From Actinophytocola gossypii (GTDB taxonomy: Bacteria > Actinomycetota > Actinomycetes > Mycobacteriales > Pseudonocardiaceae): DNA of 64,000 nt. This document shows positions 15,101-32,997 of the stretch, piece after piece; the first letter of the stretch is position 1, and every line of letters starts with the position of its first letter. The position numbers and the translations under genes are program-made. The notes under the pieces are model-generated. The model searched no databases and was not told the DNA's origin. It saw only the letters and a list, made by a program, of their open reading frames with translations. The stretch spans positions 214,047 through 278,046 of the forward strand of contig NZ_JAFFZE010000016.1 of assembly GCF_025165815.1 (NCBI RefSeq), written 5' to 3'.

Positions 15101-17412
15101 AGCGACGTCGAGTACACCGGCAGCGCGGGCTCGCGGACGGTCAGGTCGTGCGCGGCCTCGGCCAGCTCGCCGACCAGGGGGTCCATGTGGTGGCTGTGGA
15201 ACGCGACGTCGGAGTTGACCCGCTGGACGTGCAGCTCCGGGTCGGCGGTCCACTGCTTGACCACCACGTCCAGCACCGCGGTGTCGCCGGCGATCACGGT
15301 CGAGCTCGGCGCCGCGGAGATCGCGGCGACCACGCCGTCGTGCCCGGTCAGGCGGCGCTGTGCCTCCTCGAACGGCAGGTTGACCATGGCCATGCCGCCG
15401 TTGCCGGCGACCCGACGCAGCAGCGCCGAGCGGCGGCAGATGAGCCGGGCGCCGTCGGCGAGGTCGAGGATCCCGGCGACGACCGCGGCCGCGATCTCAC
15501 CGACCGAGTGCCCGATCACCGCGGCCGGCCGGATGCCGTGCTCGTACCAGACCTCGGCCAGCGCCACCTGCATCGCGAAGATCATCATCTGGATGACGTC
15601 GGTGTGCAGCAGGTCGCCCTCGAGCAGCGCGCGGCGCGGCGAGATCCCGGCCTCGTCGAGGAAGACCGGCTCCAGCTCGTCGAGCACCCGCCCGAACGCC
15701 GGCTCGGTGGCCAGCAGCTCCCGGCCCATGCCGATCCACTGCGAGCCGTGCCCGGAGAACACCCACACCGGGCCCTTCGCGGCGCCCTCGAGCGGCTGGC
15801 CCGAGGTGATCCCGTCACCCGGCTCGTCCACCCCCACCTGCCGCAGGCGTGCGATCAGCTCGTCCTGCCCGGTCGCGGTGATCGCGGTGCGGTACGCGAG
15901 GTGGCTGCGCCGGCGGGTGAGCGTGTAGGCAACATCGGCCAGCTCGGCGTCCGCGGCCCGCAGCCCGTCGCCGCCGAGCCACTGCGCCAGCCGGACCGCG
16001 TACTCGCGCACGGCCTCCGGCGAGTTCCCGGACAGCGGGTAGACGCGCTGCGCGGTGCCCTTGTCCAGCGCGGTGACCGGCTGGTCGAGCCGGGGCGCCT
16101 GCTCCAGCACGAGGTGCGCGATCGTGCCGCCGTAGCCGTAGCCGGACACCCCGGCCCGGCGCGCGCCCGCGGTGCTCGGCCACGGGGTGACCTCGGTGAC
16201 CACCCGCAGGCCGGTCTCGGGCCAGGGGATGTCCGGGTTCGGCGTGTCGAAGTTGAGGCTCGGCGGGATGGCCGCGTGCTCGATCGCGAGCACCGCCTTG
16301 ATCACCCCGGCGATTCCGGACGCGGCCTCGAGGTGCCCGATGTTGGTCTTGACCGAGCCGATCAGGCACGGCCGGTCCACCGGACGGCCCGCGCCGTAGA
16401 CCGCGGCCAGCGCGGCGGCCTCGATCGGGTCGCCGGCCCGGGTGCCGGTGCCGTGCGCCTCCACGTAGTCGACCGACTCGGGGGCGACCCCGGCGCGCAC
16501 GCAGGCCTCGCGCAGCATCTCGGTCTGCGCCTCGCCGCTCGGGGCCATGATCCCGTTCGTCCGGCCGTCCTGGTTCACCGCGCTGCCCCGGATGACCGCG
16601 AGCACCCGGTCGCCGTCCCGGCGGGCGTCGGAGAGTCGTTTGAGGACGACGATCCCGCAGCCCTCGCCCCGGCCGTACCCGTTGGCGGAGGCGTCGAAGG
16701 ACTTGGAGCGGCCGTCCGGGGCGAGCGCGCCGGCGGTGTCCATCACCATCGTGAGGCCCGGGGCGACCATCAGCATGATCCCGCCGGCGATCGCCACCGG
16801 GGTCTCGCCCTGGCGCAGGCTCTGGCAGGCCAGGTGCAGCGCCACCAGGGAGGACGAGCACGCGGTGTCCACGACCATGCTCGGCCCGTGCAGGTCGAGC
16901 ACGTAGGACACCCGGTTGGCGACCGCGCACATGGACGACCCGATGCCGGTCCAGGCCTCGATCCTGGGCAGGTCCTCGAGGAGCTTGCGGCCGTGGTCGT
17001 CGGTGTTGACGCCGACGAACACACCGGCGTTGGTGCCGGCGAGGTCGCCCGGCACGATCCCGGCGTGCTCCAGGGCCTCCCAGGTGACCTCCAGGGTCAT
17101 CCGCTGCTGCGGGTCCATCAGGGTGGCCTCGCGCGGGGACACCCCGAAGAAGGCGGCGTCGAACTCGTCCACGTTGGACACGAAGCCGCCCTGTTTGGAC
17201 ACCTTCCGCACCGCGGCCGCGTTCTCCGGCGCGGCCTCGTAGTGTTCCCACCGGTCCGGTGGTACCTCGCCGATCGCGTCGAAGCCGTCCACGAGCGCGT
17301 TCCAGAACGCCTCGGGTGAGTTGATGTCGCCGGGCAGCCGACAGCCCATACCGACGATCGCCACCGGCTCCGGAGCGTCGGGCTGTCGGTCGGCTTCGTT
17401 CGAAGTCACCAT
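12136..17412 (-). CDS. iterative type I polyketide synthase, KS-AT-DH-KR-ACP, no TE (6-MSAS / naphthoate-synthase architecture)
   Basis: KS active site DTACSSSL plus HGTGT. AT GHSVGE. DH HPVQGTEIIP. KR Rossmann GTYLITGGLGVLG. ACP GLDSV. Start set at the internal ATG (MVTSNEADR), which is preceded by GGAGGA; about 1758 aa. Confidence 0.9.
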   Translation of the reverse strand: MVTSNEADRQPDAPEPVAIVGMGCRLPGDINSPEAFWNALVDGFDAIGEVPPDRWEHYEAAPENAAAVRKVSKQGGFVSNVDEFDAAFFGVSPREATLMDPQQRMTLEVTWEALEHAGIVPGDLAGTNAGVFVGVNTDDHGRKLLEDLPRIEAWTGIGSSMCAVANRVSYVLDLHGPSMVVDTACSSSLVALHLACQSLRQGETPVAIAGGIMLMVAPGLTMVMDTAGALAPDGRSKSFDASANGYGRGEGCGIVVLKRLSDARRDGDRVLAVIRGSAVNQDGRTNGIMAPSGEAQTEMLREACVRAGVAPESVDYVEAHGTGTRAGDPIEAAALAAVYGAGRPVDRPCLIGSVKTNIGHLEAASGIAGVIKAVLAIEHAAIPPSLNFDTPNPDIPWPETGLRVVTEVTPWPSTAGARRAGVSGYGYGGTIAHLVLEQAPRLDQPVTALDKGTAQRVYPLSGNSPEAVREYAVRLAQWLGGDGLRAADAELADVAYTLTRRRSHLAYRTAITATGQDELIARLRQVGVDEPGDGITSGQPLEGAAKGPVWVFSGHGSQWIGMGRELLATEPAFGRVLDELEPVFLDEAGISPRRALLEGDLLHTDVIQMMIFAMQVALAEVWYEHGIRPAAVIGHSVGEIAAAVVAGILDLADGARLICRRSALLRRVAGNGGMAMVNLPFEEAQRRLTGHDGVVAAISAAPSSTVIAGDTAVLDVVVKQWTADPELHVQRVNSDVAFHSHHMDPLVGELAEAAHDLTVREPALPVYSTSLVDPRDDAPRDGSYWAGNLRNPVRFAGAVGAALADGYRAFVEVSPHPVVSYSINEVLAAEGIGDAVVAHTLRRNRPERTTLVDNLGTLHCTGVPVDWSAAFPGGRLAPLPGIAWQHREFRVEVPAAGVHTRLHDEDSHTLLGSPLTVNGTSTVRLWQTRLDHGSRPYPGDHPVQGTEIIPAAVLLNTFLAASGGHVLTDVSLRVPVSVAAPRELQVVHMDGSLRLASRLPGEAAEQDSGWQTHTTAVVPAVADLGGGGTLALEELRNRCVERLDPDYVVDRLASIGVAAMGFPWRINRIRRGPGELFVRVVADPNGTLPRTWASILDAALSAASVVFDGPATLRMPAHIRQVVVGGRPPEEAVLSVRVQPGSTDTVDVRVAAPDGSVVASLTGLRYGVLDGDIGAPASPRRLVHEVVWRALELPKRTHELDQVVFVGDTGFGGELGASFAEAGVPCRAVTEPSELDGAEVTAATAVVVLPRRTEDAWDSSLAATWLLTRTVQRLSTWDTQPAVWCVTRGVREATELAGVGDAALWGVGRVLGGEHPGLWGGIVDLDGADPLGSVGMLRQVLAARPADDVITVRGTDIEVARLSPVDGGADRPGVSCRPDGTYLITGGLGVLGLEVAQWLAGRGARRLVLAGRRGLPPRSSWNTVTDPNLASQIEAVRALEAAGVTVRVVALDIADRAQAARLLSANELGLPPIRGVVHAAGVLDNRMAADVDEASLVTVMRPKVAGALVLHELFPPGSLDFLALFSSAGLLLGLPGQTSYAAGNAVLDGLATHRRAGGRTDTISLGWTSWRGLGMSTSSAAIDAELSARGTADITAAEAFRSWEYAARHDVAHVAVLRTIPLLPGMTRPALLGELTAEEPAAAPGGTAAPWAELRGDDLREYLVREVAGEVAGEIKLAADELDVRRPLIEMGLDSVMTQIIRNRLERTFRVSLPATLLWNRPTVQAIGDFLAELLTPDSATEPGDDEPETPLPPAVAA

Positions 17413-17539
17413 GGTTGCTCTCGTCCTCCTCACCACACCAACGGCAAGTCTGCGGTGAGGGACGTCCCGAGAGCATCGGTCGGTGATCACGGACGGGCTG
17501 GGACAGTGACCCGACAGCGACCCGCGCCGAACCGGAAAG

Positions 17540-18217
17540 CTAACGCTCGCGCGCTCTCGCCGGGAGCAGGAAGCCGACCGCGACCAGCCAGAGCAGCGCG
17601 GCGAACCGGCCGACGGGAATGAGCGTCGTCGCCGGCTCGGTGACGAAGGTGAGGCTGGACGCCAACGACAGCCCGGCGATCACCAGACCGGCGGCGGACA
17701 GCCAGCCGGGCAGCAGCGCGGCCCGCCGGGCGACCAGGCTGACCGCGCCCACGAGCAGCGCGCCGGCGGCGACGTGCGCGAACCCGCCGAGACCGAAGTA
17801 CAGGTAGTGCATGGCCCGCCGGACGGCCGGCTCCTCGGTCACGCCCGGGTGCGCGAGGACCCACTGCACCAGGCCGTTCAGCGCGAGGAACGCCGCCGCG
17901 ACCAGGCCACCGGCGGCGGCGACCGCCGTGTGCGCGGGGAGCCCCGGCGCGAGCGAGCGCAGCCGGACGACCAGCGTCGCGGTGAGCACGGCGAGGGCGA
18001 GCCCGGTGCCGAACTGGAGGAAGCCCACCCAGGACACCAGCGTCGGGTGCCCGGCGTAGAACGCGGCGATGCCGGCGTCGTCGCCGAACGGGTTGGTGTA
18101 GACCGCGCCGGCGAACACCAGGCCGGCGAGCAGGCTCACGACGAACAGGCCCGCGGTGACCAGTGCCGGGACGGCGACCGACGCACCGCTGGTGGAACGG
18201 GAAACCGTTGTGGTCAT
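17540..18217 (-). CDS. integral membrane protein (DUF4386-like), 6 predicted TM helices
   Basis: Hydrophobic ORF. Start set at the internal ATG (MTTTVSRS). Confidence 0.55.
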   Translation of the reverse strand: MTTTVSRSTSGASVAVPALVTAGLFVVSLLAGLVFAGAVYTNPFGDDAGIAAFYAGHPTLVSWVGFLQFGTGLALAVLTATLVVRLRSLAPGLPAHTAVAAAGGLVAAAFLALNGLVQWVLAHPGVTEEPAVRRAMHYLYFGLGGFAHVAAGALLVGAVSLVARRAALLPGWLSAAGLVIAGLSLASSLTFVTEPATTLIPVGRFAALLWLVAVGFLLPARARER

Positions 18218-18308
18218 TGACAAATCGTAGAATCGGGATCGATCGGGCACGAGGGTTCCCGGCCCGCCGTCGAGTGGGTCTCGAGACGACCGGGCCTATG
18301 GTCGGGGC

Positions 18309-18698
18309 ATGACTGTTTCCGACACCATCGAGCGGTTCGCCGCCGCCGAGCGCGTTGGCGACGCGGAGGCGCTGGACGTCCTGCTGGCCGCCGACTTCCA
18401 GGGCGTCGGCCCGCTCGGGTTCGTACTCACCAAGGACCAGTGGATCGACCGCTACCGGTCGGGCGCGCTCGTGCCCAAGGCGTTCGAGCTGCGGGACACG
18501 CAGGTGCGCGAGTACGGCGACACCGCGCTGGTGCTGGCCGTGCAGCGGCAGGAGGGCAGCTACCACGGCCACGCGGCCGACGGCGAGTTCCGGGCCACGA
18601 TCGTGCTGACCCGGCGCGACGGGAGCTGGCTGATCGCGCACTGCCACCTGTCCGGGCCGCTCGGGCCGCCGCCGGGACGTCCCCCGCGGGCTCAGTAG
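18309..18698 (+). CDS. SnoaL-like / NTF2-fold protein (DUF4440-like)
   Basis: 129 aa, NTF2-like pattern (FAAAERVGDAEALDVLLAADF ... SWLIAHCHLS). Confidence 0.65.
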   Translation: MTVSDTIERFAAAERVGDAEALDVLLAADFQGVGPLGFVLTKDQWIDRYRSGALVPKAFELRDTQVREYGDTALVLAVQRQEGSYHGHAADGEFRATIVLTRRDGSWLIAHCHLSGPLGPPPGRPPRAQ

Positions 18699-19327
18699 GC
18701 GATCTCCACGGTGGACCGGAAGGTCGACGCGTCGCCGACGTGGGCGAGCAGGTGGTGCGCCACGTCGGCGCGGGAGATCGACCAGCAGCCGCGCAGCTTC
18801 CCGTTCCGCGCGGTGCGGTAGCGACCGGTGACCGGGCCGTTGGTGAGCCGGGCGGCCCGCACCAGGGTCCAGTCGACGTCGCTGGCTCGGACCCGCCGCT
18901 CCATCTCGGCCATGTCCGCGTACGGCTTGGCCAGGATCCGGTGCAGCAGGAACCGCGCCAGGAACCACTCCGCGACGTGCTTCGGCGGCGGGATCTCCAG
19001 CGACGACGTGGACACCACGAGCAGCCGCCGGGTGCCCTCGGCGCGCATCGCGTCGAGGATGTTGCCGGTGCCCTGCGAGTAGACCGTTGTGGCGTGCCGG
19101 TGCATGCCGATGCCGAGCGCGGAGACCACCGCCTCCGAGCCGGCGACCACCCGGCCGACCGCGTCCGGATCGAGCACGTCCCCGCCCACGACCGTGATCC
19201 GGTCGCCGAACTCCGCCAGCGCGCCGGGATCCCTGGCCAGCGCGGTCACCTTGTCGCCGGCCTCCAGGGCCTGCGCGATCGCCGCGCGCCCGGTCCCGCC
19301 GGTCGCACCGAACACCGCCAGCCGCAT
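18692..19327 (-). CDS. NAD(P)H-binding protein (NmrA/atypical SDR, BVR-B-like reductase)
   Basis: N-terminal MRLAVFGATGGTGRA Rossmann motif; 211 aa. Confidence 0.75.
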   Translation of the reverse strand: MRLAVFGATGGTGRAAIAQALEAGDKVTALARDPGALAEFGDRITVVGGDVLDPDAVGRVVAGSEAVVSALGIGMHRHATTVYSQGTGNILDAMRAEGTRRLLVVSTSSLEIPPPKHVAEWFLARFLLHRILAKPYADMAEMERRVRASDVDWTLVRAARLTNGPVTGRYRTARNGKLRGCWSISRADVAHHLLAHVGDASTFRSTVEIAY

Positions 19328-19408: not shown

Positions 19409-20842
19409 TCAGGCGGCCTGCTGGCCCGCGGTGGCCGCCCGGACGGCGGCGACCAGGTCCGCGCGGCTCGCGCCGGGCAGCTGCGGCGGGGGACCGCCGG
19501 CCAGCGCCCTGCCGACCCGTTCCTTGATCTCGTCGTTGGCGTACAGCTCGGCCGGGGACACCAGCGACATCATCACCTGGGCGACCCGGCGCCAGATCTC
19601 GGCGTCCTTCGTGGACGCTCCGACCACCGCGCCGAAGGTGAGCACGCCGGGCGGCGGCGCCTGCGGGCGCTCGCCGGCGATCGTGGCCGCCCACAGCCCG
19701 CCACGGCCGCGGTCGTTGGCGATCGACTCGCCGAGCCACGGCGCGAGCAGCGCCTTGCTGGCCCCGGCGAACCGCGCGGCCTGCGCGCGGTCCACGGTCG
19801 GGTGCTCGGCGAGCAGGTCGACCAGCTCGAACACGTGCGCCAGCGCCAGCGACACGCCCCGCCCGTACGCCGGGTTGGTCGTGCACACCGAGTCGCCGAG
19901 GCCGTAGAAGCCGACCGGCAGGTCACCGGCCGGATCCGCCAGCCGCGAGCTGTTGTCCAGCCCGCCCATCGCGTACACCGGCGAGGTCGGCTCGGAGTTG
20001 CCCGGCGCGACCCAACCCGCGAGCAGCGGGGTGGCCCGGATCGCCGCGGTGAACGCCTCCTCGGTGCGCAACGCCTTCATCTCCTTGTCGTCCGGCAGCA
20101 CGCCGAGCGAGATGGAGAAGGTGTCGTTGTCCCCGAGGAACAGCACCGCGGTGTAGCTGTCCCACAGCCCGCCCGCGCCGAACCCGCGGTTCAGCGGGCC
20201 GGGCGGCGCCGGGGTGAGCCGGCGGTAGTAGCGGGTGTAGTACGTGATCCGGCAGCTCTCGCTGGTCTGCTCCGGCACCGGCAGACCGGCCGCGTCCAGC
20301 CACTGCGGCGCGGCGGTCTTCCGGCCGCTGGTGTCCAGCACCAGGTCGGCGGTCAGCTCGGTGCCGTCGGCCAGCCGCACGCCGCGGACCGGGCCGCCGT
20401 CGGTGAGCAGGCCGCGGACCGTGGCGCCGGTACGCACCGACACCCCGGGCCGGGACAGCGCCCGCTCCCGCAGCACGAACTCGAACACCGAGCGCCGCGC
20501 GGTGATCATGTTCAGCTCGTCGTCCTCGGGCTTGCGCTCGAAGTCGCCGAGCGTCGGCGGCGGGTAGTCGGCCAGGTTGAGCGTGCCCGCGCCGGCCGCG
20601 AGCAACGCCTCGTACACGTCCGGGAGCCGGTCGCGCAGCAGGTTGGTGCCGCGCGAGCCGAAGGCGTGCGAGTGCGCCGCCTGCGGCACGGTCGGCCGGG
20701 CCCAGCCGTCCGCCGCGTCGTCCAGTGTGGACGGCGGGGCGGCGGATTCTCGTTCGACCAGCAGCACCTCGTGACCGGCGTCGGCCAGCGCGGCCGCGGC
20801 GGCCAGGCCGGTGACGCTCGCTCCGACAGCGATGATCCTCAT
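19409..20842 (-). CDS. FAD-dependent oxidoreductase / monooxygenase
   Basis: Start set at the internal ATG giving MRIIAVGASVTGLAAAAALADAGHEVLLVERE (dinucleotide-binding GxGxxG). The track ORF N-terminal extension is Arg-rich non-coding read-through. Confidence 0.75.
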   Translation of the reverse strand: MRIIAVGASVTGLAAAAALADAGHEVLLVERESAAPPSTLDDAADGWARPTVPQAAHSHAFGSRGTNLLRDRLPDVYEALLAAGAGTLNLADYPPPTLGDFERKPEDDELNMITARRSVFEFVLRERALSRPGVSVRTGATVRGLLTDGGPVRGVRLADGTELTADLVLDTSGRKTAAPQWLDAAGLPVPEQTSESCRITYYTRYYRRLTPAPPGPLNRGFGAGGLWDSYTAVLFLGDNDTFSISLGVLPDDKEMKALRTEEAFTAAIRATPLLAGWVAPGNSEPTSPVYAMGGLDNSSRLADPAGDLPVGFYGLGDSVCTTNPAYGRGVSLALAHVFELVDLLAEHPTVDRAQAARFAGASKALLAPWLGESIANDRGRGGLWAATIAGERPQAPPPGVLTFGAVVGASTKDAEIWRRVAQVMMSLVSPAELYANDEIKERVGRALAGGPPPQLPGASRADLVAAVRAATAGQQAA

Positions 20843-21253: not shown

Positions 21254-22285
21254 TCAGGATGCCTTGCTGGTTACCGAACTCGGGAGGGTGGAACGAACCG
21301 CGTCGACGATCTTGTCGGCGTTGGGCGGGAACGCGTCCTCCAGCGCCGGGCTGAACGGCACCGGGGCGTGCGGACCGGTGACCGTGCGCACCGCGGCCGA
21401 CAGCGAGGAGAACCGGTTCTCCGCGACCGTGCCGGCGATGTCGGTGGCCACCGAGCAGCGCGGGTTGGACTCGTCGACCACCACGAGCCGGCTGGTCTTC
21501 TCCACGCTCGCGTAGACCGTGTCGAAGTCGAAGGGGGACAGCGTGCGCGGGTCGACGACCTCGGCCCGCACGCCCTCGGCCTCGAGCCGCTCGGCCGCGG
21601 CCAGTGCCTCGTTCACCATCCGCCCGATCGCGACGATGGTGACGTCGTCGCCCTCGCGCACGACCTTCGCCTGGCCGAGCGGGATCGTGTACCGCTCCTC
21701 GGGGACCACCGCGCGGCTGCCGAAGTACAGCAGCTTGTGCTCGAAGAAGATCACCGGGTCGTCGTCCTGGATGGACGCGGCCAGCAGGCCCTTGGCGTCG
21801 ACCGGGTTGGACGGCGCGACCACCTTCAGCCCGGGGATGTGGGTGAACAGCGAGTACAGCGCCTGCGAGTGCTGGGCGCCGCGGCGCATCCCGGTACCCC
21901 ACATGCAGCGCAGCACCATCGGCACGGCCGCCTTGCCGCCGACCATGTACCGCAGCTTGGCGGCCTGGTTGAGGATCTGGTCGAAGCAGACCCCGGCGAA
22001 GTCGACGAACAGCAGGTCGGCCACCGGACGCAGCCCGGTCGCCGCGGCCCCGACCGCGGCGCCGACGAACGCGGACTCGGTGATCGGCGCGTCCAGGATC
22101 CGGTCCGGGAACTGGTTGTGCAGTCCGCGGGTCGGGCCCCAGGCGTGGCCCATGGTGCCGTCGCAGCCGTGCCCACCGACGGCGTCCTCGCCGAACACGA
22201 CCACCGACGGGTCGGCGGCCAGCTCCTGCGCGAGCGCCTCGTTCAGTGCATCCAGGTAGGACAGCACCCGTTGCGGCTGAGTCAT
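21254..22285 (-). CDS. ThDP-dependent 2-oxoacid dehydrogenase E1 component, beta subunit (transketolase-like Pyr and C-terminal domains)
   Basis: Typical E1-beta sequence (LNEALAQEL, VVFGEDAVGGHG, HSQALYSLFTHIPGLKVV). Start at the internal ATG (MTQPQ). Stop is 5 nt after the E1-alpha stop, giving an alpha-then-beta operon. Confidence 0.85.
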   Translation of the reverse strand: MTQPQRVLSYLDALNEALAQELAADPSVVVFGEDAVGGHGCDGTMGHAWGPTRGLHNQFPDRILDAPITESAFVGAAVGAAATGLRPVADLLFVDFAGVCFDQILNQAAKLRYMVGGKAAVPMVLRCMWGTGMRRGAQHSQALYSLFTHIPGLKVVAPSNPVDAKGLLAASIQDDDPVIFFEHKLLYFGSRAVVPEERYTIPLGQAKVVREGDDVTIVAIGRMVNEALAAAERLEAEGVRAEVVDPRTLSPFDFDTVYASVEKTSRLVVVDESNPRCSVATDIAGTVAENRFSSLSAAVRTVTGPHAPVPFSPALEDAFPPNADKIVDAVRSTLPSSVTSKAS

Positions 22286-22309
22286 CTCTTTCCTCTCCCT
22301 CAAGTGCTG

Positions 22310-23284
22310 TCAGTAGGACACGTAGACGTCGGTGAGCAGCTCGGCGGCCTCCGGGGCGGGCGCGGCCTTCGCCTCGGCGACCGCGACCTCGACGGCCGCC
22401 TCGACCGTCACGTCGACCCCGTTGACGTCCTCGGTGGACAGTCCGGCGGCGGCGGTGAACCGGACCAGGCAGTCCTCGGCGCGCAGCCGGTCGACCTCGC
22501 CCTCGCCGCGGTAGCCCTGCTGGTCGAAGCCCTCCATGTGCCCGAAGAACCGGCCGGCCTTGCACTCGATGAACGAGGGTCCGCCGCCCGAGCGGGCACG
22601 CTCCACCGCGGCGTCCGCGGCCGCGCGCACCGCGAGGTAGTCGGTGCCGTCCACGATGGCGGCCGGCATGCCGAACGCCTCCGCGCGGCGGGCGACGTCC
22701 AGCCCACGCAGGTGGTAGCGGGTGCCGGTGGCCTGCGCGTACCCGTTGTCCTCCACGACGAACACGACCGGGAGCTGCCAGACCGTGGCCAGGTTCAGGC
22801 TCTCGGCGAAGGAGCCCTGGTTGGCCGCGCCGTCCCCGACGAAGGCGACCGAGACGTGCCGCTTGCCCAGGATCTTCGCGGTCAGCGCCGACCCGCAGGC
22901 CAGCGGTGCGCCGCCGGCCGCGACCCCGTTCGCGCCGAGCATCCCGCGCTCGAAGTCGGCGATGTGCATCGAGCCGCCCTTGCCGTTGCAGGAGCCGCCG
23001 GCCTTGCCGTACAGCTCGCGCATCATGGCGCCGATGTCGCAGCCCTTGGCGATCGCGTGACCGTGGCCGCGGTGGGTGCTGGCGATGTAGTCGCCCTCGA
23101 CGAGCGCGCCGCACACGCCGGCGGCGACCGCCTCCTGGCCGGCGTAGAGGTGCACCGCCCCGGGCAGCTCACCGGAGCCGAACTCGGCGTGGACCCGCTC
23201 CTCGAACGCCCGAATGGTCCGCATCACCCGGTACGCCTCGATCAGTTCCTCGCGGCCGAGCGTGCCGGCGGATTCTGTGGCCAT
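22310..23284 (-). CDS. ThDP-dependent 2-oxoacid dehydrogenase E1 component, alpha subunit
   Basis: Only the C-terminal 324 aa of track ORF 22310..24277 is coding. ThDP motif GDGAANQG...N; YRxHGH-like region (STHRGHGHAIAKG). Confidence 0.85.
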   Translation of the reverse strand: MATESAGTLGREELIEAYRVMRTIRAFEERVHAEFGSGELPGAVHLYAGQEAVAAGVCGALVEGDYIASTHRGHGHAIAKGCDIGAMMRELYGKAGGSCNGKGGSMHIADFERGMLGANGVAAGGAPLACGSALTAKILGKRHVSVAFVGDGAANQGSFAESLNLATVWQLPVVFVVEDNGYAQATGTRYHLRGLDVARRAEAFGMPAAIVDGTDYLAVRAAADAAVERARSGGGPSFIECKAGRFFGHMEGFDQQGYRGEGEVDRLRAEDCLVRFTAAAGLSTEDVNGVDVTVEAAVEVAVAEAKAAPAPEAAELLTDVYVSY

Positions 23285-23410
23285 GAGACGGTTCCTTTCC
23301 ACATGATTGCCTGCGGTGGAAGCTAGGGCGATTTGCGCAATTACCCCTCGAAGGTCGAGCAACGCACCCCCGTACGCTGGGCTGACGCGACACTGATGAG
23401 GAGGCGCACC

Positions 23411-24565
23411 GTGCGGGATTCCCGGATCGAGACGATGGCCGTGCACGCCGGCGAGCGGTCGCCGGGACCGGACAACTCGGTGGTGTTCCCGATCTACCAG
23501 GGCACGGTGTTCCGCTCCGAGCCCGGCGAGAGCTACCACGACATCCAGTACCTGCGGCTGAACTCGACCCCGTCGCAGGCGTACCTGCACGACAAGCTGG
23601 CCGCGCTGGAGGGAGCGGAGGACGCGGTGGCCACGGCGTCCGGCATGGCCGCGGTGACCACGACCCTGCACGCGCTGCTCAAGGCCGGCGACCACCTGCT
23701 GGTGGGTGACGTGCTGTACGGCGGCACCCACGGGTTCCTCACCGCGCACGCCGAACGACTGGGCTGGACGTACACGTTCGTCGACCCGCACGACCCGGCG
23801 TCCTGGGCGGCCGCTCGCCGGCCGGAGACGAAGGCGTTCCTGGTCGAGACGATCACGAACCCGCTGATGCGGGTGGGGGCGTTGACCGAGGTGGTGTCGT
23901 TCGCGCGGGCGGAGGGCCTGGTCAGCGTGGTCGACAACACGTTCGCGAGCCCGGTCAACTTCCGCCCGCTGGCGGCCGGGTTCGACCTGGTCTTCCACAG
24001 CGCGACGAAGTACCTGAACGGTCACTCCGACCTGGTCGCCGGTGCCGTCGCGGGCTCCGCGGAGCTGGTCGGCCGGATCCGCGAGACCCTGAACATCTAC
24101 GGCGGCAGCCTGGACCCGCACGCCGGGTTCCTGCTGGCCAGGGGTCTGAAGACGCTCGCATTGCGGGTCCGGGCGCAGAACGCGAACGCGATGGCGCTGG
24201 CCGAGTTCCTGGCCGGGCGGGACGAGGTGTCGGTGGTGAACTACCCGGGCCTCGGCGACCACCCCGACCACGCGCACGCGAAGGCCCTGCTGTCCGGCTT
24301 CGGCGGCATGCTGAGCTTCCGCCTGGCCGGCGGCGTGCCGGCCGCGGAGTCGTTCCTGTCGGCGCTGCGCCTGCCGGCGGTGGCCCCTTCCCTGGGTGGG
24401 GTCGAGTCGCTGGTCACCCGCCCGGCGCTGACCTCACACGCGGGCATGACCCCCGAGGCCCGCGCCGCCGCCGGCGTGCACGACGACCTGATCCGACTCA
24501 GCTGCGGCATCGAGCACGCGGACGACCTCATCGAGGACGTGTCCGGGGCGCTGGCGAACCGGTGA
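23411..24565 (+). CDS. Cys/Met-metabolism PLP-dependent enzyme (cystathionine gamma-synthase/gamma-lyase/methionine gamma-lyase family)
   Basis: AVHAGE N-terminus; PLP-lysine motif SATKYLNGHSD. Start chosen at the GTG six nt after GAGGAGG. Alternative ATGs at 23396 and 23435. Confidence 0.8.
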   Translation: MRDSRIETMAVHAGERSPGPDNSVVFPIYQGTVFRSEPGESYHDIQYLRLNSTPSQAYLHDKLAALEGAEDAVATASGMAAVTTTLHALLKAGDHLLVGDVLYGGTHGFLTAHAERLGWTYTFVDPHDPASWAAARRPETKAFLVETITNPLMRVGALTEVVSFARAEGLVSVVDNTFASPVNFRPLAAGFDLVFHSATKYLNGHSDLVAGAVAGSAELVGRIRETLNIYGGSLDPHAGFLLARGLKTLALRVRAQNANAMALAEFLAGRDEVSVVNYPGLGDHPDHAHAKALLSGFGGMLSFRLAGGVPAAESFLSALRLPAVAPSLGGVESLVTRPALTSHAGMTPEARAAAGVHDDLIRLSCGIEHADDLIEDVSGALANR

Positions 24566-24704: not shown

Positions 24705-25943
24705 TCACCGCGTCGCCGGTCCGGACGCGGGATCCGGCACCCGTGCGTGTGGGGACGACCGGGGGAGCCACAGCGCCAGCGCGCCCGCGGCGAGCAGCAG
24801 CAGCCCCGCGACGGTCAGGGAGTTCGACTCGAGCTGCCCGCCCAGCGTGGTCGGGGTGTGTCGGACCCACGGTTCGACCCAGGTGTAGGGCGCGACGAAG
24901 GACGCGGCCGCGGCGAGCAGCACCGCGACGCCCCACGTCCGGGACCGGGTGCGCACGACGAGCGCGGTCAGCACCACGAACACCGGCACCAGCCAGACCC
25001 AGTGGTAGGCCCACGAGATCGGGGAGACCAGGAGAGCGACCACCCCGACCAGCACCGCCCCCTCGCGGACGAGCCCGCGCCGGTGCAGCCCGACGCACAC
25101 GGCGAGCCCGCCGACGAGCACGACCAGGGCGACGGCCAGCCAGGACACGAACACGTCTGGGTCGTGCAGCAGCCTGGCCATCATGCCGCGCAGGTTCTGG
25201 TTGAGGGAGATGCCGGGGTCCTGGTGGATCCGGTCGGTGTCCCAGGCGTGGCCGGTCCAGTAGCTCCAAGCCGCCCCCGGCATGACCGCGAACCCGACGG
25301 CGACGGTCACCGCGAACGACGCGACCGCCGTCCACGCCTCCCGGAACCGGTGGGTGAGCAGGAAGTAGAGGATGAACAGGCCGGGCGTGAGCTTGATGCC
25401 GGCCGCGACGCCGATCATGACGCCGCGCCCGCGCGCCCCGTCACGCCGGCACAGGTCCGCGACGATCAGCAGCGCGAGGAACATGTTGACCTGACCGGAC
25501 CACAGCTCCTGCCAGCCCGGGTCGAACACGACGAACGCACCGGCGGCGGCGAGCCCGACCCCGAGCCGCACCCGGACCCGCCGGACACCGACCCACCCGG
25601 TGGTGAGCCAGACGGCACCCTGGAGGGCGAGGAAGATCCCGGTGAACCAGACGATCCGCACGGCCTCCAGGGACAGCAGCGACAGCGGGGCGAGCAGCAA
25701 CCCGGCGAAGGGCGGGTAGACGAGGCTGAGCTCGCGCTGCGGGAGCCAGAACAGGTACGGGTTGTCCCCGTTCCACACGGCGGTACCGCTGGCATGGAAG
25801 ACCTGCAGGTCGAACGTGGTCCATGGCCCGCCCTCCACCAGCCGCCGGGCCAGGAGTGCCAGTGCGACCGACCAGCCGAGCGCGCCGAGCACGATGAGCG
25901 CGGACCGCCAGCCGGCGGGTCTGATGGGAGTCCGAACGTCCAT
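24705..25943 (-). CDS. polytopic membrane glycosyltransferase, GT87/DUF2029 family (mannosyl/arabinosyl-transferase-like)
   Basis: 412 aa with about 10 TM helices. Resembles actinobacterial alpha-(1,2)-mannosyltransferase / DUF2029 proteins. Confidence 0.65.
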   Translation of the reverse strand: MDVRTPIRPAGWRSALIVLGALGWSVALALLARRLVEGGPWTTFDLQVFHASGTAVWNGDNPYLFWLPQRELSLVYPPFAGLLLAPLSLLSLEAVRIVWFTGIFLALQGAVWLTTGWVGVRRVRVRLGVGLAAAGAFVVFDPGWQELWSGQVNMFLALLIVADLCRRDGARGRGVMIGVAAGIKLTPGLFILYFLLTHRFREAWTAVASFAVTVAVGFAVMPGAAWSYWTGHAWDTDRIHQDPGISLNQNLRGMMARLLHDPDVFVSWLAVALVVLVGGLAVCVGLHRRGLVREGAVLVGVVALLVSPISWAYHWVWLVPVFVVLTALVVRTRSRTWGVAVLLAAAASFVAPYTWVEPWVRHTPTTLGGQLESNSLTVAGLLLLAAGALALWLPRSSPHARVPDPASGPATR

Positions 25944-26112: not shown

Positions 26113-29100
26113 TCAGGTCGGCTCCCGGTTCACGGCTCGGGTGATCGCGGACTCCACCGCGGCCACCCGGTCGGCGAGCAGGCCGACGGCGCCGATCGCC
26201 CTGGTCATGGGGTCTTCGGCGGTGCCGCCGAGGGCCTTGTCGCGGAGGTAGGCGGCCTTGACGTCGGACCAGCGGGCGGCCTGCTCCTCGGTCAGCCGGC
26301 CGCGGAGTTCGGCGAGCTTGAGCAGGTTGGCCTCCGCGCCGGCGGTGAGGGTCTGGGCCTCGCCGAGGTAGTGATCGTCGATCATCGACTCCAGTTCGGC
26401 GTCGTTCATCACCGGGACGATGCGTTCGGCCAGCTTGTTCATGTTGCGGTACGAGCCCTGCAGCAGGAACGGTGGCTCGGTGCGGGACGCGTCGGCCTGG
26501 GCCGCTGACGCGATGTACGCCTTGTTGTTCGCCAGCACCACCTGTTGGACCCGCAGCAGCTTGCGCAGCACCGACAGCACCTGCTCCAGCTCGACCGACG
26601 AGTACGGGTGCGTCAGCGAATCCGCGCGCACCGACTCGTCGCCGCGGGCGAGGCGGACCAGCAGCTCGATGTCCGAGCGCTCCCGTGTGGACAGTGGCGC
26701 CAGGACCTCGTTGGACGTCAACGAGTTCTCGATGTAGCTCAGCGCGAACAGCTCGTCCTTCCCGGACAGCACGTCACCGAGGTTCCACACGTCGGCGCGG
26801 TTGGCGAGCATGTCCGGGATACGGAACCGCTTGCCCTGCTCGGTGTACGGGTTGCCGGCCATGCACACCGCGAACCGCTTGCCGCGCAGGTCGTAGGTGC
26901 GGGTCCGGCCGCGCCACACGCCCTCCATCCGGCGCTGGGCGTCGCACAGGCTGATGAACTTCTGCAGCAGCTCGGGGTTGGTGTGCTGGATGTCGTCCAG
27001 GTACAGCAGCACGTTGTTCCCCAGCTCCAGCGCGAAGCTGATCTTCTCGACCTCCTGCCGCGCGGTCGCGTTGGGCGCGTCGGCCGGGTCCAGCGAGGTC
27101 ACGTCGTGGCCGAGTGCGGGACCGTTGACCTTGACGAACACCAGGCCGAGGCGGTTCGCCACGTACTCCATCAGCGTGGTCTTGCCGTAGCCGGGCGGGG
27201 AGATCAGCAGCAGCAGGCCCATCTGGTCGGTCCGCTTGCCCTCGCCGGTCGCACCGAGCTGCTTGGCCAGGTTGTCGCCGATCAGCGGCAGGTACACCTC
27301 GTCCAGCAGCCGGTTGCGCACGAACGCGCTCATCACCGTCGGGCGGAACTCGTCCAGGCGCAGCCGGGCGCGCTCGCGGGCGACCAGGTCGTTGCGCCGG
27401 CGCTGGTACGCCCGGTAGGCCGGCACCGTCTCGTCGCGGAACCGGCGGGTGCGGGTGAGCAGCTCGTCGACCCGGACCTCCAGCCCGCGGTCGACGATCC
27501 TCGGGTGCGCGCCGAGCAGGGACTCCACTGTGGACGACAACGGCGCCGACGAGTCGTGTCGGGGCAACGTCGAGCCGCACAGCTCGATCGCCACCGCCTC
27601 GGGAAGGTCGTCGGGTCGACCGTCCACTGTGGGCAGGAAGGCGGCCAGCCAGGCGTGGGCCAGCTGGTGCCGTGCCGCGAGGTCGTCGCCGAGGGCGCGC
27701 AGGTCGTCGTCGAAGTCGGTGCGGTCGCCGAGCGCGCGGCGGAACCGTTCCACCAGGGTGCGGGCGGCGGCGCTGGTGACGAACCCGAGCGGGGTCGACG
27801 CCAGCTCCTCGACCAGGTACTCGGCCGCCAGCGCGGGTGGCTCGCCGAGGCCGGTGGCGCGGTGGAACTCGGCCATCGCCGCCGCCAGTTCGGTGCACAG
27901 GTCGGCGATCGCGGGTACCGGGCCGAACGCCGACCGGGCCCTGGCCAGCGAACCGGCGCGGGTGGACCAGCGCTGCCTTGCCGGCTCGTCGGTGCCGAAC
28001 GCCCAGAACAGCTGGGCCGCGGCCCGCGCGTCCGGCGGGTACCGCAGCAGCCCGGCCCCGGCGGACAGGCGCAGCAACGTCGCCAGGATCGCGGCCGCGT
28101 CGTGGTCGTGCACGCCGCGCTCGTAGCCCTCGTCGTAGCGGGCCTCGGCGGCGGCGCGGACCAGGTCGAGCAGGTCGTCGGGCGGGGTGTCGGGCGGCAC
28201 GTCGGCGAGCATGCTCGCGGCCAGGTACTCCGCCCGGTACACCTCCGCCGACTCCGAGACCAGCGACTGGTCCCAGAACGGGCGGGTGGCGGCGAACTCC
28301 GGGTCGGCCAGCGGCTCGCGGAAGTCCGTGCCGGTGACCGCGAGCGCCATCTCGCCGTCCTTGGGCACCAGCGTGAGGTCGACGGCCTGGGTGTTGACCG
28401 CGAACCGGTGCCGGCCGAACCGGACGGTCTCGCCGCCGTCACCGAACAGGTCCGCGCGGTCGCGCAGGGACCGGCCCGCCTCCTGCCGGGCGGCCTTGAG
28501 CCGGCCGGCCAACTCCTCCGCGCGCACCGAGTCGTCCAGCGTGCGCAACTCGTCGGCCACGGCGCGGACCTTGGCGACCATCGGGTCGGAGGCGAAGTAG
28601 GTGTTCACCTCGTCCACCGAGGACAGCGTGGCGACCCGGCGATTGACGCTGGTGAGCACCCGCTCGGCGGAGTCCACCAGCCGGTCCGCGCGCCGGGCCT
28701 GCTCGTCCACCAGCGACTGCTTGCGTGAGGAGAACGCCTCGTAGACCTCGGTGCGCTTCTCGGCGAGCTCGGCGAGGAAGTCGTCGAACTCGGCGAACCG
28801 GGACTCCAGGTTCTCCAGCCGGAGCAGCAGCGTGCCCAGCCCGTCGTCGCAGCGGCGAGGGGTGTCGGCGACCGCGAGCGCGCCGGTGATCGCCTGCCCG
28901 AGCAGCGCGAACTCGGCGGCGAACGCGGCCCTGCCCTCGGTGGACAGCAGCTCCCGGCGCCGGCCGTCCAGCGTGGCGCGGGCCCGGTTGACGCCGCCGA
29001 GCACCTCGCCGATCCGCTCCAGGATCCCGGTGCGCACGGTCGCGTCGGCGATCTCCAGCCCGCCGACGACCTCGGTGACGATCTCCAGTGCCGCCGCCTG

Positions 29101-31020
29101 CTCGCCCAGCCGCTCGCCGACGGGCCCGGCCTCGGCGACCGTCGCGATCGCCTCGGCGTCGGCGACCAGCGCGGCGACCCGCTCGTGGTAGCCGGTGAAC
29201 GCGTCCGGGCCGCGCAGGAACTCCACCGCGCGCCCGGCGGTCGCGTCCAGCTCGGCCGACAGCAGCTCGGCCAGCTCGTCGATCCGCGTGGTGTCGACAT
29301 ACCGCAGCTCACGCAGGGTGACCAGCCTGCCCTGTGCGCGGCGCAGCTCGGCGAGCTGGGCCACCCACTGGTCGGCGGTCTTCGGCGCCTCGCCGCGCGC
29401 CCGCCGCACCAGCGACCGGATCTCCCCGTCGGCCTCGGCGAGGGCCTTCGCCGACGACGCGGTCAGCTCCTGCACGGTCTCGAACTCGGCCAGCACCTGC
29501 TCGGCGGTGGCACGCACGTCGGCGACCGGGGTGCGCAGGTCGCCCAGCTCCGGCTCGCCGAGCCAGTGGTAGCTGTCGAACGCCCTGGTGCACGCGGCGA
29601 TCAGGCCCTCGAACATCGCCGTCGACGGGGACATCTCGCCGACCATCCTGGCCACCGACAGGCAGTCGGAGACGCCACGCACCAGGTCGGCGTTGCCGAT
29701 CCGTTCCAGCGGGCCGGTGCCGACCGGCTGCGCGGCGGCGTAGCTGTCCGATGTGTACGGTGTCTGCCACACCTGCATCGGGTGCACCCGCGTGGGTTCC
29801 TCCGAATCGGCGCGGAACGCGACCAGCGTGCCGTCGTCGAACAGCGAGTACCCGTGGCAGGGCAGCGGGGTGGCGACCTCCTTGCGGATCACGTTGTACG
29901 GCAACAGGAGCGTGCGGCCCTCCCGCCGGGCGTGGAAGACGTAGAGCACGTCCTCGCCGTTGGGCGACCGGACGACCCCCTCGAACTCCAGGTCGTCGGT
30001 GTCGGTGTCGAAGGTCCTGGACGCGCCGGTGGCCAGGTAGTAGCCGCCGGGGAAGATGAGCCCCTGGTCCTCGGGCAGCCGCTGGCACGCCTGCCCGATG
30101 CCGTCGAGCCGCACCACCGACCTGGTGCGGGTGTTGAAGACCAGGTACCGCCAGACCGTCTCGTTGTAGGGCAGGATCTTCAGCAGGATCAGCGGGCCGA
30201 CCCTGGCGTGGTACACGGCGGCGTCGGCGAGGCTCTGCAGCGGCTCGTCCACCGGCTCGGAGTAGACGCCCTCGCCGGACTCGGTGTTGTTCTCCACCTT
30301 GATGGTGAGGTCGCCGTTCAGCGTCTCGATGAACACCTCGTCGCCGATCGAGATGTGCGGGTGCCGGCCGAGCACGTGGTCGTCCCGCGTGGTCTCGGTC
30401 CACTCGAAGTCGTGCGACGCCGGGAAGACGTGATCGCGCTCGCCCGCGTTGTCCAGATAGGACACCGTGCCGTTCGGGTCGATCCGCCAGCGCAGCACCT
30501 TGATGTCCTCGGTGCGCGGGCCGGTCTGGAACACCGCGAGCAGCTTGCCCTCAACCGGGCGCAGCTGCAGCAGCCTGGTCTCCCGGTAGTAGCGGTACAG
30601 CTCGGTGAAGTCGCGGCGGAACCGCTCGTCCCGCAACAGCTCCGGCCGCTCGTCGGCGCCCGCGTCGGCGAACCGGAACGCGTCGCCGTCCCGGGTGAAC
30701 CGGTGCAGCGAGAACACGTCCTCGATCGTGGTCTCCGGCTTGAGGCCGATGAACACGTTGTAGCCGAACAACATCAGCCCACGGGTACCGTCCTGGATGG
30801 ACAGGATGTCGCGCGGAACGCAGTTGTTGACGGTGCGGATCCGCTCGGCACCGACCAGCCGCAGCTCGGTGCTGCCGAACACCTCGAGCCGCCGCGCGTT
30901 GAGCGCCTCCGCGCGGCGGGCCAGCTCCCCGGCCTGTTCGGCGAGCCGGGCGCGCAGCACCTCGTAGGTGCGCGCGTCCAGCCCGTCCACGGTGGCCGGG
31001 GCCTCCTCGGTCGTCGTCAC
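26113..31020 (-). CDS. giant (1635 aa) flotillin-associated protein with a C-terminal AAA+ ATPase module
   Basis: Walker A SPPGYGKTT, Walker B LLYLDDI, sensor CMAGNP at about residues 1150-1400. Long predicted helical/coiled-coil middle region and a beta-rich N-terminal 400 aa without recognisable motifs. GTG start overlaps the flotillin TGA. Confidence 0.8.
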   Translation of the reverse strand: MTTTEEAPATVDGLDARTYEVLRARLAEQAGELARRAEALNARRLEVFGSTELRLVGAERIRTVNNCVPRDILSIQDGTRGLMLFGYNVFIGLKPETTIEDVFSLHRFTRDGDAFRFADAGADERPELLRDERFRRDFTELYRYYRETRLLQLRPVEGKLLAVFQTGPRTEDIKVLRWRIDPNGTVSYLDNAGERDHVFPASHDFEWTETTRDDHVLGRHPHISIGDEVFIETLNGDLTIKVENNTESGEGVYSEPVDEPLQSLADAAVYHARVGPLILLKILPYNETVWRYLVFNTRTRSVVRLDGIGQACQRLPEDQGLIFPGGYYLATGASRTFDTDTDDLEFEGVVRSPNGEDVLYVFHARREGRTLLLPYNVIRKEVATPLPCHGYSLFDDGTLVAFRADSEEPTRVHPMQVWQTPYTSDSYAAAQPVGTGPLERIGNADLVRGVSDCLSVARMVGEMSPSTAMFEGLIAACTRAFDSYHWLGEPELGDLRTPVADVRATAEQVLAEFETVQELTASSAKALAEADGEIRSLVRRARGEAPKTADQWVAQLAELRRAQGRLVTLRELRYVDTTRIDELAELLSAELDATAGRAVEFLRGPDAFTGYHERVAALVADAEAIATVAEAGPVGERLGEQAAALEIVTEVVGGLEIADATVRTGILERIGEVLGGVNRARATLDGRRRELLSTEGRAAFAAEFALLGQAITGALAVADTPRRCDDGLGTLLLRLENLESRFAEFDDFLAELAEKRTEVYEAFSSRKQSLVDEQARRADRLVDSAERVLTSVNRRVATLSSVDEVNTYFASDPMVAKVRAVADELRTLDDSVRAEELAGRLKAARQEAGRSLRDRADLFGDGGETVRFGRHRFAVNTQAVDLTLVPKDGEMALAVTGTDFREPLADPEFAATRPFWDQSLVSESAEVYRAEYLAASMLADVPPDTPPDDLLDLVRAAAEARYDEGYERGVHDHDAAAILATLLRLSAGAGLLRYPPDARAAAQLFWAFGTDEPARQRWSTRAGSLARARSAFGPVPAIADLCTELAAAMAEFHRATGLGEPPALAAEYLVEELASTPLGFVTSAAARTLVERFRRALGDRTDFDDDLRALGDDLAARHQLAHAWLAAFLPTVDGRPDDLPEAVAIELCGSTLPRHDSSAPLSSTVESLLGAHPRIVDRGLEVRVDELLTRTRRFRDETVPAYRAYQRRRNDLVARERARLRLDEFRPTVMSAFVRNRLLDEVYLPLIGDNLAKQLGATGEGKRTDQMGLLLLISPPGYGKTTLMEYVANRLGLVFVKVNGPALGHDVTSLDPADAPNATARQEVEKISFALELGNNVLLYLDDIQHTNPELLQKFISLCDAQRRMEGVWRGRTRTYDLRGKRFAVCMAGNPYTEQGKRFRIPDMLANRADVWNLGDVLSGKDELFALSYIENSLTSNEVLAPLSTRERSDIELLVRLARGDESVRADSLTHPYSSVELEQVLSVLRKLLRVQQVVLANNKAYIASAAQADASRTEPPFLLQGSYRNMNKLAERIVPVMNDAELESMIDDHYLGEAQTLTAGAEANLLKLAELRGRLTEEQAARWSDVKAAYLRDKALGGTAEDPMTRAIGAVGLLADRVAAVESAITRAVNREPT

Positions 31021-32984: not shown

Positions 32985-32997
32985 AGTGGACCTTTCG

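Follow-up and report, generated by a model that had tools for sequence, protein, structure and literature searches.

The 64,000-nucleotide stretch of the Actinophytocola gossypii genome analysed here (hereafter the window; contig NZ_JAFFZE010000016.1, positions 214,047 to 278,046) raises the question of what a pair of genes encoding the E1α and E1β subunits of a thiamine diphosphate (ThDP) dependent dehydrogenase is doing in a polyketide biosynthetic cluster, with neither a lipoyl E2 nor an E3 component beside it. A first-pass annotation of the window, made from the sequence alone, had described the pair as an orphan inside a biosynthetic region and had suggested that it might donate a two-carbon or acyl unit to a carrier protein or other acceptor, with a divergently transcribed pyridoxal phosphate (PLP) enzyme of the Cys/Met-metabolism family possibly supplying its substrate. 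Our analysis showed that the E1 pair is an E2-less offshoot of the acetoin dehydrogenase E1 component (AcoA/AcoB) with diagnostic active-site substitutions.

Genes in the window, which has a G+C content of about 72%, were called by third-position GC and checked against profile libraries. The E1α, E1β and divergent PLP genes are all three intact, as first annotated, with profile matches far above chance (coordinates of these and other features are collected in Table 1). The E1β end at 22303 given previously corresponds to an upstream in-frame TTG, while the ATG start gives 22285; this start is preceded by a GGGAGAGG ribosome-binding site. Alignment showed that E1α keeps the ThDP motif (G150-D-G...N180-x-Y182) and catalytic His249, and that the cofactor Glu in the ITES motif of E1β and the His in its GAQHSQ motif, presumably the catalytic one, correspond to the Glu in TPLAES and the His in ELHSDS of B. 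stearothermophilus E1β. Relatives of this two-subunit (α plus β) E1 type form α2β2 heterotetramers.

The pair does not belong to the primary pyruvate dehydrogenase (PDH) or branched-chain 2-oxoacid dehydrogenase (BCKDH) enzymes, in agreement with the earlier suggestion of a role outside primary metabolism. Scores fell below the cut-off for the NCBIfam models of both PDH E1α (PDH_E1_alph_y, TIGR03182; 296.1 bits against 393.85) and PDH E1β (PRK09212; 318.8 bits against 321), and in a PDB search E1α matched human PDH E1α at 4.5e-50 and BCKDH chains only at about 1e-24, its nearest relatives being acoA. A scan of genome contigs with E1α matched at least 80 loci, mostly canonical acoA and not close relatives, which served as a control set. 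Among the matches listed, 79 of the 80 loci were 50–60% identical to E1α; a lipoyl open reading frame (ORF) followed E1β in 71 of them, and the remaining eight mostly end soon after E1β. One locus from Bacillus mycoides (L070) is a textbook acoA-acoB-acoC-acoL operon, plasmid records label equivalent matches 'acetoin dehydrogenase E1 component alpha-subunit', and the JGI name for many homologues is acetoin:DCPIP (dichlorophenolindophenol) oxidoreductase. Because of these acoA-type relatives and annotations, AcoA/AcoB is the nearest characterised family, with which the window pair shares the two-subunit architecture, 50–60% identity, and the same ThDP/Mg motif and catalytic His/Glu.

Unlike AcoA/AcoB, the window pair has no acoC (lipoyl E2) or acoL (E3) downstream. 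Pfam found no Biotin_lipoyl domain, 2-oxoacid_dh domain or E3 architecture among the 34 gene calls scanned in the window, tblastn with Bacillus AcoC and AcoL gave no match within it, and a lipoyl-domain hidden Markov model (HMM) run over six-frame ORFs of at least 60 aa likewise gave none. As a positive control, the same HMM found a lipoyl ORF directly 3' of E1β in 71/71 canonical acoAB loci. In nine genomic loci that carry the window's type of E1 pair no lipoyl ORF was found within 10 kb, the HMM matches there being acetyl-CoA carboxylase biotin carriers only. The earlier statement that the window holds no lipoyl E2 or E3 is thus borne out by Pfam, tblastn, the lipoyl HMM and the canonical-locus control, and the pair is indeed an orphan inside a biosynthetic cluster. 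This E1 lineage has lost its lipoyl-E2 and E3 partners.

A second difference from AcoA/AcoB is phylogenetic. The best 120 database clusters, 64–92% identical to the window's E1α, came from Actinophytocola, Lentzea, Actinosynnema, Kibdelosporangium, Amycolatopsis, Actinokineospora, Kutzneria, Plantactinospora, Kitasatospora and soil metagenomes. With the genomic loci added, the set came to 128 sequences, which formed one monophyletic group, with none of the 71 canonical sequences inside it, in a neighbour-joining tree that was midpoint-rooted without an outgroup and for which the canonical sample was biased. Mean E1α identity was 73% within the E2-less group and 56% to canonical acoA.

The E2-less clade also carries fixed changes along the active-site channel. 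A residue counted as a signature if it was invariant in eight genomic sequences of the clade while the canonical set had a different residue there with at least 85% conservation. From canonical to clade, these are F43A, E50Q, G123A, E184Q and F250M in E1α and V52P, E91D, M93L, F112L, A136R and A137G in E1β, the latter in the numbering of a translation whose first codon lies just upstream of the ATG. Both Q184 and M250 occur in 120/120 of the best database clusters and M250 in 0/71 canonical sequences, while position 43 is A or V in the best 120 clusters except for one R and one more that is gapped. A43 stands where the G-F-x-H-L motif has its Phe, and the AA to RG change in E1β lies 3–4 residues before the conserved His of GAQHSQ. 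M250 aligns with the serine directly after the catalytic histidine of human PDH E1α, which is presumably phosphorylation site 1 at the active-site mouth. The ThDP/Mg motif and H249 are kept throughout the clade, and the substitutions, as read from the alignments, would probably mean a re-tuned and probably enlarged substrate channel on an otherwise competent catalyst. Loss of the cofactor-activating glutamate through E91D in E1β was considered and rejected, as that Glu is the E of ITES and D91 lies in the motif RPVA(E/D).

These results bear on the simplest alternative, namely that the pair is an ordinary catabolic or primary E1 whose E2 and E3 are encoded elsewhere in the genome and whose polyketide synthase (PKS) neighbourhood is fortuitous. 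High similarity to acoAB, catalytic residues that are all intact and an E2/E3 search that covered the window rather than the rest of the genome all fit such an enzyme. We consider it very unlikely nonetheless, since the E2 gene is kept in the operon in 71/71 canonical relatives and in none of the related loci scanned, the active-site substitutions are fixed across the best 120 database clusters, and members of different families repeatedly carry the pair in polyketide clusters, even where the genes have been rearranged as in Kitasatospora.

The real conserved partners of the E1 pair, missed by the first-pass annotation, are genes encoding a SnoaL-like protein, a flavin adenine dinucleotide (FAD) protein resembling MonCI/Lsd18, and an NmrA-like reductase. 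Gaps in the order E1α, E1β, SnoaL, FAD, reductase are 24, 10, 5 and 81 nt in the window, each measured from the stop codon of one gene to the start of the next, and we refer to this gene set as the cassette. Of 26 informative loci, drawn from at least seven actinomycete genera, 25 encode a SnoaL-like protein directly 3' of E1β. Eight of the nine genomic loci have this arrangement (the window, A. xanthii L001, Lentzea nigeriaca L002, Amycolatopsis nigrescens L085, Plantactinospora L086, Kibdelosporangium phytohabitans L089 and the metagenome-assembled genomes (MAGs) L005 and L087), followed by the FAD protein and usually the NmrA-like reductase. The exception among the nine is Kitasatospora viridis (L004), whose PKS cluster carries the SnoaL and FAD orthologues at a distance of 6–8 kb. 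Scanning metagenomes for the clade motif RF[FY]GHMEG gave 28 further E1α loci, and where there was enough downstream DNA the SnoaL gene followed E1β in 17/17 and the FAD gene was also present in 15/17.

The FAD protein matched MonCI (5e-20) and Lsd18/LasC (8e-20) in the PDB, the next match being a halogenase at 3e-6, and the WxWxI halogenase motif, when looked for, was absent from it. Its orthologues are 60–91% identical in every cassette locus compared, and those of the reductase 58–88% identical in most cassette loci, the gene being absent from Plantactinospora L086 and Kitasatospora L004. Like the MonCI and Lsd18 systems, the cassette thus combines an FAD protein, strongly related in the PDB to these two enzymes alone, with a small protein of NTF2/SnoaL fold; such partner pairings reportedly include MonCI-MonB, Lsd18-Lsd19 and AuaJ/AuaI. 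It differs from them in that no relationship of its SnoaL-like protein to Lsd19 or MonB was detected, the best PDB matches being weak (1TUH, IdmH and NgnD/StmD), and in the lack of a polyether-type PKS.

In the window the cassette forms the right-hand end of a cluster built on a type I PKS, orthologues of which are 72–76% identical in L001 and L087. All cassette loci were found in a polyketide cluster context, type I in the window and type II elsewhere. In Lentzea, Amycolatopsis, Plantactinospora and Kibdelosporangium the cassette comes after a type II PKS set (KSα, KSβ, cupin, cyclase, acyl carrier protein (ACP) and acetyl-CoA carboxylase) and a two-component regulator, and Kitasatospora has a rearranged version of the type II PKS arrangement, with pqqA-E and pyrroloquinoline quinone (PQQ)-type dehydrogenases. 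Cupins of the Actinophytocola clusters are 45–47% identical to that of Kitasatospora L004, where the cupin gene follows E1β, and an esterase-like gene common to the Actinophytocola and Kitasatospora clusters shows 59% identity. Finding the same gene set despite the differing synthase type points to a common aglycone-level step. A Kibdelosporangium sequence (P0094) was also considered as the kibdelomycin enzyme KbDH and rejected, as its locus belongs to the same type II PKS plus cassette family.

At the head of an operon conserved in polyketide clusters, the pair probably forms or cleaves a carbon-carbon bond on a natural product. We tentatively propose that it is a stand-alone ThDP carboligase that attaches a two-carbon (C2) unit at a carbonyl group of an intermediate in the pathway, most likely one of polyketide origin, and we put this function at somewhat less than an even chance. 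ThDP would take up the C2 unit by decarboxylation of pyruvate, or from an acyloin or diketone donor, and the hydroxyethyl-ThDP carbanion would then attack a ketone or aldehyde of the polyketide-derived intermediate. The adjacent oxidoreductases may create or process the acceptor carbonyl, the product would be an α-hydroxy-ketone (acetyl) branch that the NmrA-like reductase could reduce, and a lipoyl arm and carrier protein would play no part. Such chemistry has parallels, as the Bacillus acetoin:DCPIP oxidoreductase alone carries out E2-independent carboligation of an activated C2 unit onto ketones, activated ones among them, and aldehydes in vitro (PMC12247030 section 2.2), and E2-less E1α/β pairs in biosynthetic clusters add pyruvate-derived acetyl branches that are then reduced by reductases (PMC12247030; PMC4425429; PMC10338323). 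The direction of the reaction, its donor and the aglycone rather than a sugar as its acceptor are what we infer here, a polyketide-derived acceptor being favoured because the partners that travel with the E1 pair are aglycone-type enzymes.

Several points weigh against this proposal. Experimentally supported natural-product E1 pairs all act on keto-sugars and not on aglycones (PMC12247030; PMC4425429; PMC10338323), and the A. xanthii cluster encodes a UDP-glucose dehydrogenase and a UXS-like short-chain dehydrogenase/reductase (SDR) that could make a 4-ketopentose acceptor. The reaction could also run as cleavage and not ligation. A function for the E2-less clade is suggested by sequence and gene context, the functions of the partners come from modest or remote homology (the MonCI/Lsd18 match lies near E=1e-20), and the SnoaL-like protein has no informative relative, its single-sequence AlphaFold model reaching a pLDDT (predicted local distance difference test) of 56 and being unusable. 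Lastly, the search for E2 and E3 spanned the window and the 10-kb flanks of related loci rather than whole genomes.

The keto-sugar precedent leads to a rival reading in which the pair branches a sugar, as do AviB1/AviB2, EvdU5/EvdS3, Pau11/Pau12, AlmDI/DII and KbDH, by transferring the acetyl unit of pyruvate to a nucleoside diphosphate (NDP)-4-keto or 3-keto sugar, after which a reductase gives a hydroxyethyl branch. No other role of E2-less pairs in clusters has experimental support (PMC12247030 section 2.2; PMC4425429; PMC10338323). The 'alphaKADH2' group of sugar-branching pairs resembles the window pair in being E2-less E1α/β pairs inside natural-product clusters with a reductase downstream, in subunit size (325 aa for Pau11 and 345 aa for Pau12) and in what is likely the same chemistry, the addition of a pyruvate-derived hydroxyethyl-ThDP to a ketone (PMC12247030; PMC4425429; PMC10338323). 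The window itself begins with a DegT-type sugar aminotransferase, an NmrA-like reductase stands in the operon, and in Amycolatopsis nigrescens a GT1 gene comes after the cassette. Beyond the window's left edge, the orthologous cluster of A. xanthii runs on through FdtA, GT1, UDP-glucose dehydrogenase and UXS-like SDR genes and an erythromycin-esterase-like gene, and the first four of these amount to a route to UDP-4-ketopentose, the proposed acceptor in eurekanate biosynthesis (PMC10338323).

Gene context weighs somewhat against sugar branching, which we consider rather unlikely though still the strongest of the rivals. The sugar genes of the A. xanthii cluster lie more than 20 kb from the E1 pair, as against 5–10 nt for the SnoaL and FAD genes, and the 10-kb flanks on both sides in Lentzea, Kibdelosporangium and Kitasatospora showed no NDP-sugar gene and no glycosyltransferase gene. 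The invariable neighbours of the window pair are SnoaL-like proteins and epoxidase-like flavoproteins and not sugar enzymes, and SnoaL-like proteins and MonCI-like epoxidases have no known role in sugar branching. Pau11 and AviB1 are only 37% identical (PMC4425429), so that the sugar enzymes do not form one tight clade from which membership could be read off, which also tells against assigning the window pair to them.

The same neighbours may instead serve an oxidative C-C cleavage in which the flavoprotein epoxidises an alkene, the SnoaL-like protein opens the epoxide, a dehydrogenase turns the diol so formed into an α-hydroxy-ketone and the E1 pair, as an acyloin lyase, cleaves off C2 in the manner of acetoin cleavage. 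Limonene-epoxide-hydrolase pathways provide a parallel. Gene order and content fit this sequence of steps (a MonCI/Lsd18-like epoxidase, an NTF2-fold protein and an NmrA-like oxidoreductase), the Phe-to-Ala/Met/Leu changes are consistent with room for a leaving aldehyde larger than acetaldehyde, and acyloin cleavage is the ancestral AcoAB reaction (PMC12247030 section 2.2.1). In a lyase of this kind, however, hydroxyethyl-ThDP would have no efficient exit when E2 or another oxidant is missing, and the SnoaL-like protein showed no detectable similarity to NTF2-type epoxide hydrolases in the PDB search. We know of no natural-product precedent, and regard the acyloin-lyase route as distinctly unlikely.

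The last reading to be weighed is that of the first-pass annotation, in which the E1 pair would load a carrier protein or the PKS with an acyl or glycolaldehyde-type starter or extender, with the PLP enzyme supplying a 2-oxoacid such as 2-oxobutyrate. E1α and the PLP gene are adjacent and divergent in the window and in all Actinophytocola-type loci, the gap in the window being 48–111 bp depending on the start codon. The best NCBIfam models of the PLP enzyme are methionine γ-lyase and cystathionine γ-synthase, although no equivalog model reaches its cut-off, and the Lentzea cluster has an unrelated CysK-like PLP enzyme. A comparable recruitment of an E1/transketolase-type ThDP enzyme for two-carbon delivery is known from quinocarcin and naphthyridinomycin (QncN/QncL, NapB/NapD) and ecteinascidin (EtuP1/P2), where the unit reportedly passes through a lipoyl/E2-like component to a dedicated ACP. 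The window and related loci, in contrast, have no lipoyl domain and no free ACP. A search for small carrier-protein ORFs between positions 1 and 27000 found none, the sole PP-binding domain being the C-terminus of the PKS. Moreover, hydroxyalkyl-ThDP cannot become a thioester without an oxidant.

Synteny separates the PLP gene from the cluster altogether. In A. algeriensis (L090) and A. oryzae (L091) the gene adjoins the same block of DUF3686 AAA-ATPase, Band_7 and small protein as in the window (identities of 74–76%, 81% and 82–86%), and no E1, SnoaL, FAD, reductase or PKS gene was found within 10 kb of it in either species. It is absent from the cassette loci of six other genera, and the 72–76% identity that its homologues keep far outside the genus, even between orders, is usual for a housekeeping trans-sulfuration enzyme. 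The PLP gene belongs to the chromosomal backbone, outside both cassette and cluster, and the cluster has evidently been inserted next to it, which places the right-hand border between 23284 and the PLP start. An erythromycin-esterase-like gene was considered as the left insertion border and rejected, as the A. xanthii copy is unrelated to the copy on the PLP side in A. algeriensis and is 59% identical to the Kitasatospora cluster copy.

The feeding of 2-oxobutyrate to E1 by the PLP enzyme is therefore rejected on synteny, and a functional link between the two is not supported. Carrier transfer of the quinocarcin/naphthyridinomycin type lacks both a lipoyl/E2-like partner and a dedicated ACP, and the model as a whole is the least probable of those considered here. 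What survives of the earlier interpretation is an orphan E1 pair of an E2-less lineage inside a cluster; the PLP link and the transfer to a carrier protein find no support.

Returning to the carboligase proposal, orphan E1 pairs in clusters are already known and the kind is not new. What appears to be new is an AcoAB-derived subfamily with signature residues, its invariable coupling to SnoaL-like and MonCI-like proteins, and its presence in a widespread and apparently uncharacterised family of aromatic polyketide clusters. A literature search found no description of an epoxidase/NTF2 pair coupled to a ThDP E1, nor of an E1 cassette in polyketide clusters, although coverage was incomplete and this is absence of evidence only. 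It is possible, and we hold this only slightly more loosely than the carboligase function itself, that the operon is an undescribed polyketide-tailoring module in which an E2-less ThDP enzyme of AcoAB ancestry forms or cleaves C-C bonds directly on the aglycone and which has passed from one PKS cluster to another, of type I and of type II, in Pseudonocardiaceae, Micromonosporaceae and Streptomycetaceae. If so, E1-type ThDP chemistry would for the first time be seen on polyketide scaffolds rather than on sugars. As biocatalysts for chiral tertiary alcohols, stand-alone E1 pairs are in demand, and they have so far been tied only to sugar branching; a well-delimited subfamily of at least 128 sequence clusters, with diagnostic substrate-channel residues and fixed partners, offers a target for new ThDP chemistry on polyketides. 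The cassette could also serve as a genome-mining handle for these apparently uncharacterised aromatic polyketide clusters, and the analysis fixes the right-hand border of the window's cluster and removes a misleading PLP 'partner'.

Table 1. Features of the window, in order of position.
Feature	Position	Strand	Basis and remarks
DegT-type sugar aminotransferase, cut by the window edge	3-1046	+	Pfam
Three major facilitator superfamily (MFS) transporters	within the left part, 3-6841		Pfam
Methyltransferase	1054-1788	-	Pfam
NUDIX hydrolase	1805-2359	-	Pfam, tblastn
Cupin	6926-7444	+	Pfam/NCBIfam; tblastn with A. xanthii genes
Amidohydro_2 protein	7460-8395	+	Pfam/NCBIfam; tblastn with A. xanthii genes
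SDR	8392-9141	+	Pfam/NCBIfam; tblastn with A. xanthii genes
SchA/CurD-domain protein	~9171-9551	+	Pfam/NCBIfam; tblastn with A. xanthii genes
F420-type luciferase-like oxidoreductase	9551-10408	+	Pfam/NCBIfam; tblastn with A. xanthii genes
Aryl-acid adenylating enzyme, DhbE/EntE-like, 551 aa	10465-12120	-	NCBIfam DHB_AMP_lig 585 bits against cut-off 723.55; Pfam AMP-binding
Type I PKS KS-AT-DH-KR-ACP, 1784 aa, core synthase	12136-17490	-	Pfam; best PDB matches MAS and DEBS modules
Polytopic membrane protein, 236 aa, hydrophobic	17540-18250	-	no Pfam or NCBIfam match; 42% identity to Lentzea type II cluster copy (tblastn)
SnoaL_3/DUF4440 protein, 129 aa	18309-18698	+	Pfam DUF4440 4e-20; only in Actinophytocola-type clusters (L001, L087)
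NmrA-like/NAD_binding_10 reductase, 211 aa, usual fifth operon gene	18692-19327	-	Pfam NAD_binding_10 7e-43
FAD-dependent monooxygenase, 477 aa, MonCI/Lsd18-like	19409-20842	-	PDB phmmer; starts 5 nt after SnoaL stop
SnoaL_2/NTF2-like protein, 131 aa	20848-21243	-	Pfam SnoaL_2 1.3e-13; starts 10 nt after E1β stop
E1β, 343 aa from ATG	21254-22285	-	Pfam Transket_pyr 4e-38, Transketolase_C 5e-42
E1α, ThDP-binding subunit, 324 aa	22310-23284	-	Pfam E1_dh E=1e-72
Cys/Met-metabolism PLP enzyme	23333 (TTG) or more likely 23396 (ATG) to 24565	+	Cys_Met_Meta_PP (PF01053) 409.6 bits, E=1e-122; SATKY lysine motif
tRNA-Lys(ttt)	40020-40095	-	Rfam
tRNA-Ser(tga)	51792-51877	-	Rfam

Among the genes to the left of the cassette, the SDR and SchA/CurD genes (8392-9551) and the NUDIX gene were recognised through comparison with A. 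xanthii. The SchA/CurD domain is associated with type II spore-pigment clusters and is found here in a type I PKS cluster. The gene set between 6926 and 21249 (PKS, aryl-AMP ligase, a member of the Amidohydro_2 decarboxylase family, cupin, two SnoaL-like proteins, SDR, NmrA-like reductases and an epoxidase-like flavoprotein) may resemble that of 6-methylsalicylate-derived epoxyquinone pathways such as that of patulin.

Around the operon no consensus promoter or terminator was found. In L002, L085, L086 and L089 a non-coding stretch of 500–960 bp separates the two-component regulator from E1α (for example L089 9037-10001); no convincing ORF was found in it, and a comparison of this long leader with Rfam gave no match to a TPP riboswitch or any other RNA family. 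Such a stretch, present in all the type II loci, may act as a regulated leader or as a promoter.

Other features of the cassette-bearing loci were also recorded. The type II PKS clusters with the cassette include PQQ-type β-propeller dehydrogenases, and the Kitasatospora cluster L004 also has a full pqqA-E-like set comprising a 42-aa peptide, Lactamase_B_2, PqqD and a radical SAM protein, which is unusual in a polyketide cluster; these genes lie at 13501-18506 and 810-2438 in L004 and at 14621-16252 in L002. Three loci unrelated to one another encode RCC1-repeat β-propeller proteins within a few kb of the cassette (L004 from 20972, L089 15225-16334 and L119 9928-11424). The CysK-like fold-type II PLP enzyme of Lentzea (L002 19214-20170, minus strand; 334.8 bits against a cut-off of 350.95), unrelated to the window's PLP gene, hints at sulfur or β-substitution chemistry in that cluster.

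To the right of the cluster border, the minus strand of the window encodes a 1635-aa DUF3686/DUF7902 AAA-ATPase, a 655-aa SPFH/Band_7 protein and a 217-aa protein without a family (26113-33651). Four Actinophytocola-type genomes (that of the window, L087, L090 and L091) keep this block beside the PLP gene at 66–86% identity, and it looks like a stress or defence-type module. Between it and the PLP gene is a GT87 mannosyltransferase-like gene (24705-25943, minus strand). Its A. xanthii counterpart is only 48% identical, and L087, L090 and L091 have no such gene at this place, so that it is a variable insertion outside the cluster. An Rfam scan of the window gave no matches beyond the two tRNA genes. 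Finally, at 40178-44831 on the minus strand, and unrelated to the E1 finding, the gene of a 912-aa protein with an Hsp70-like domain overlaps or abuts that of a 681-aa FAD_binding_4/cytokinin-dehydrogenase-like protein, which is an odd pairing.

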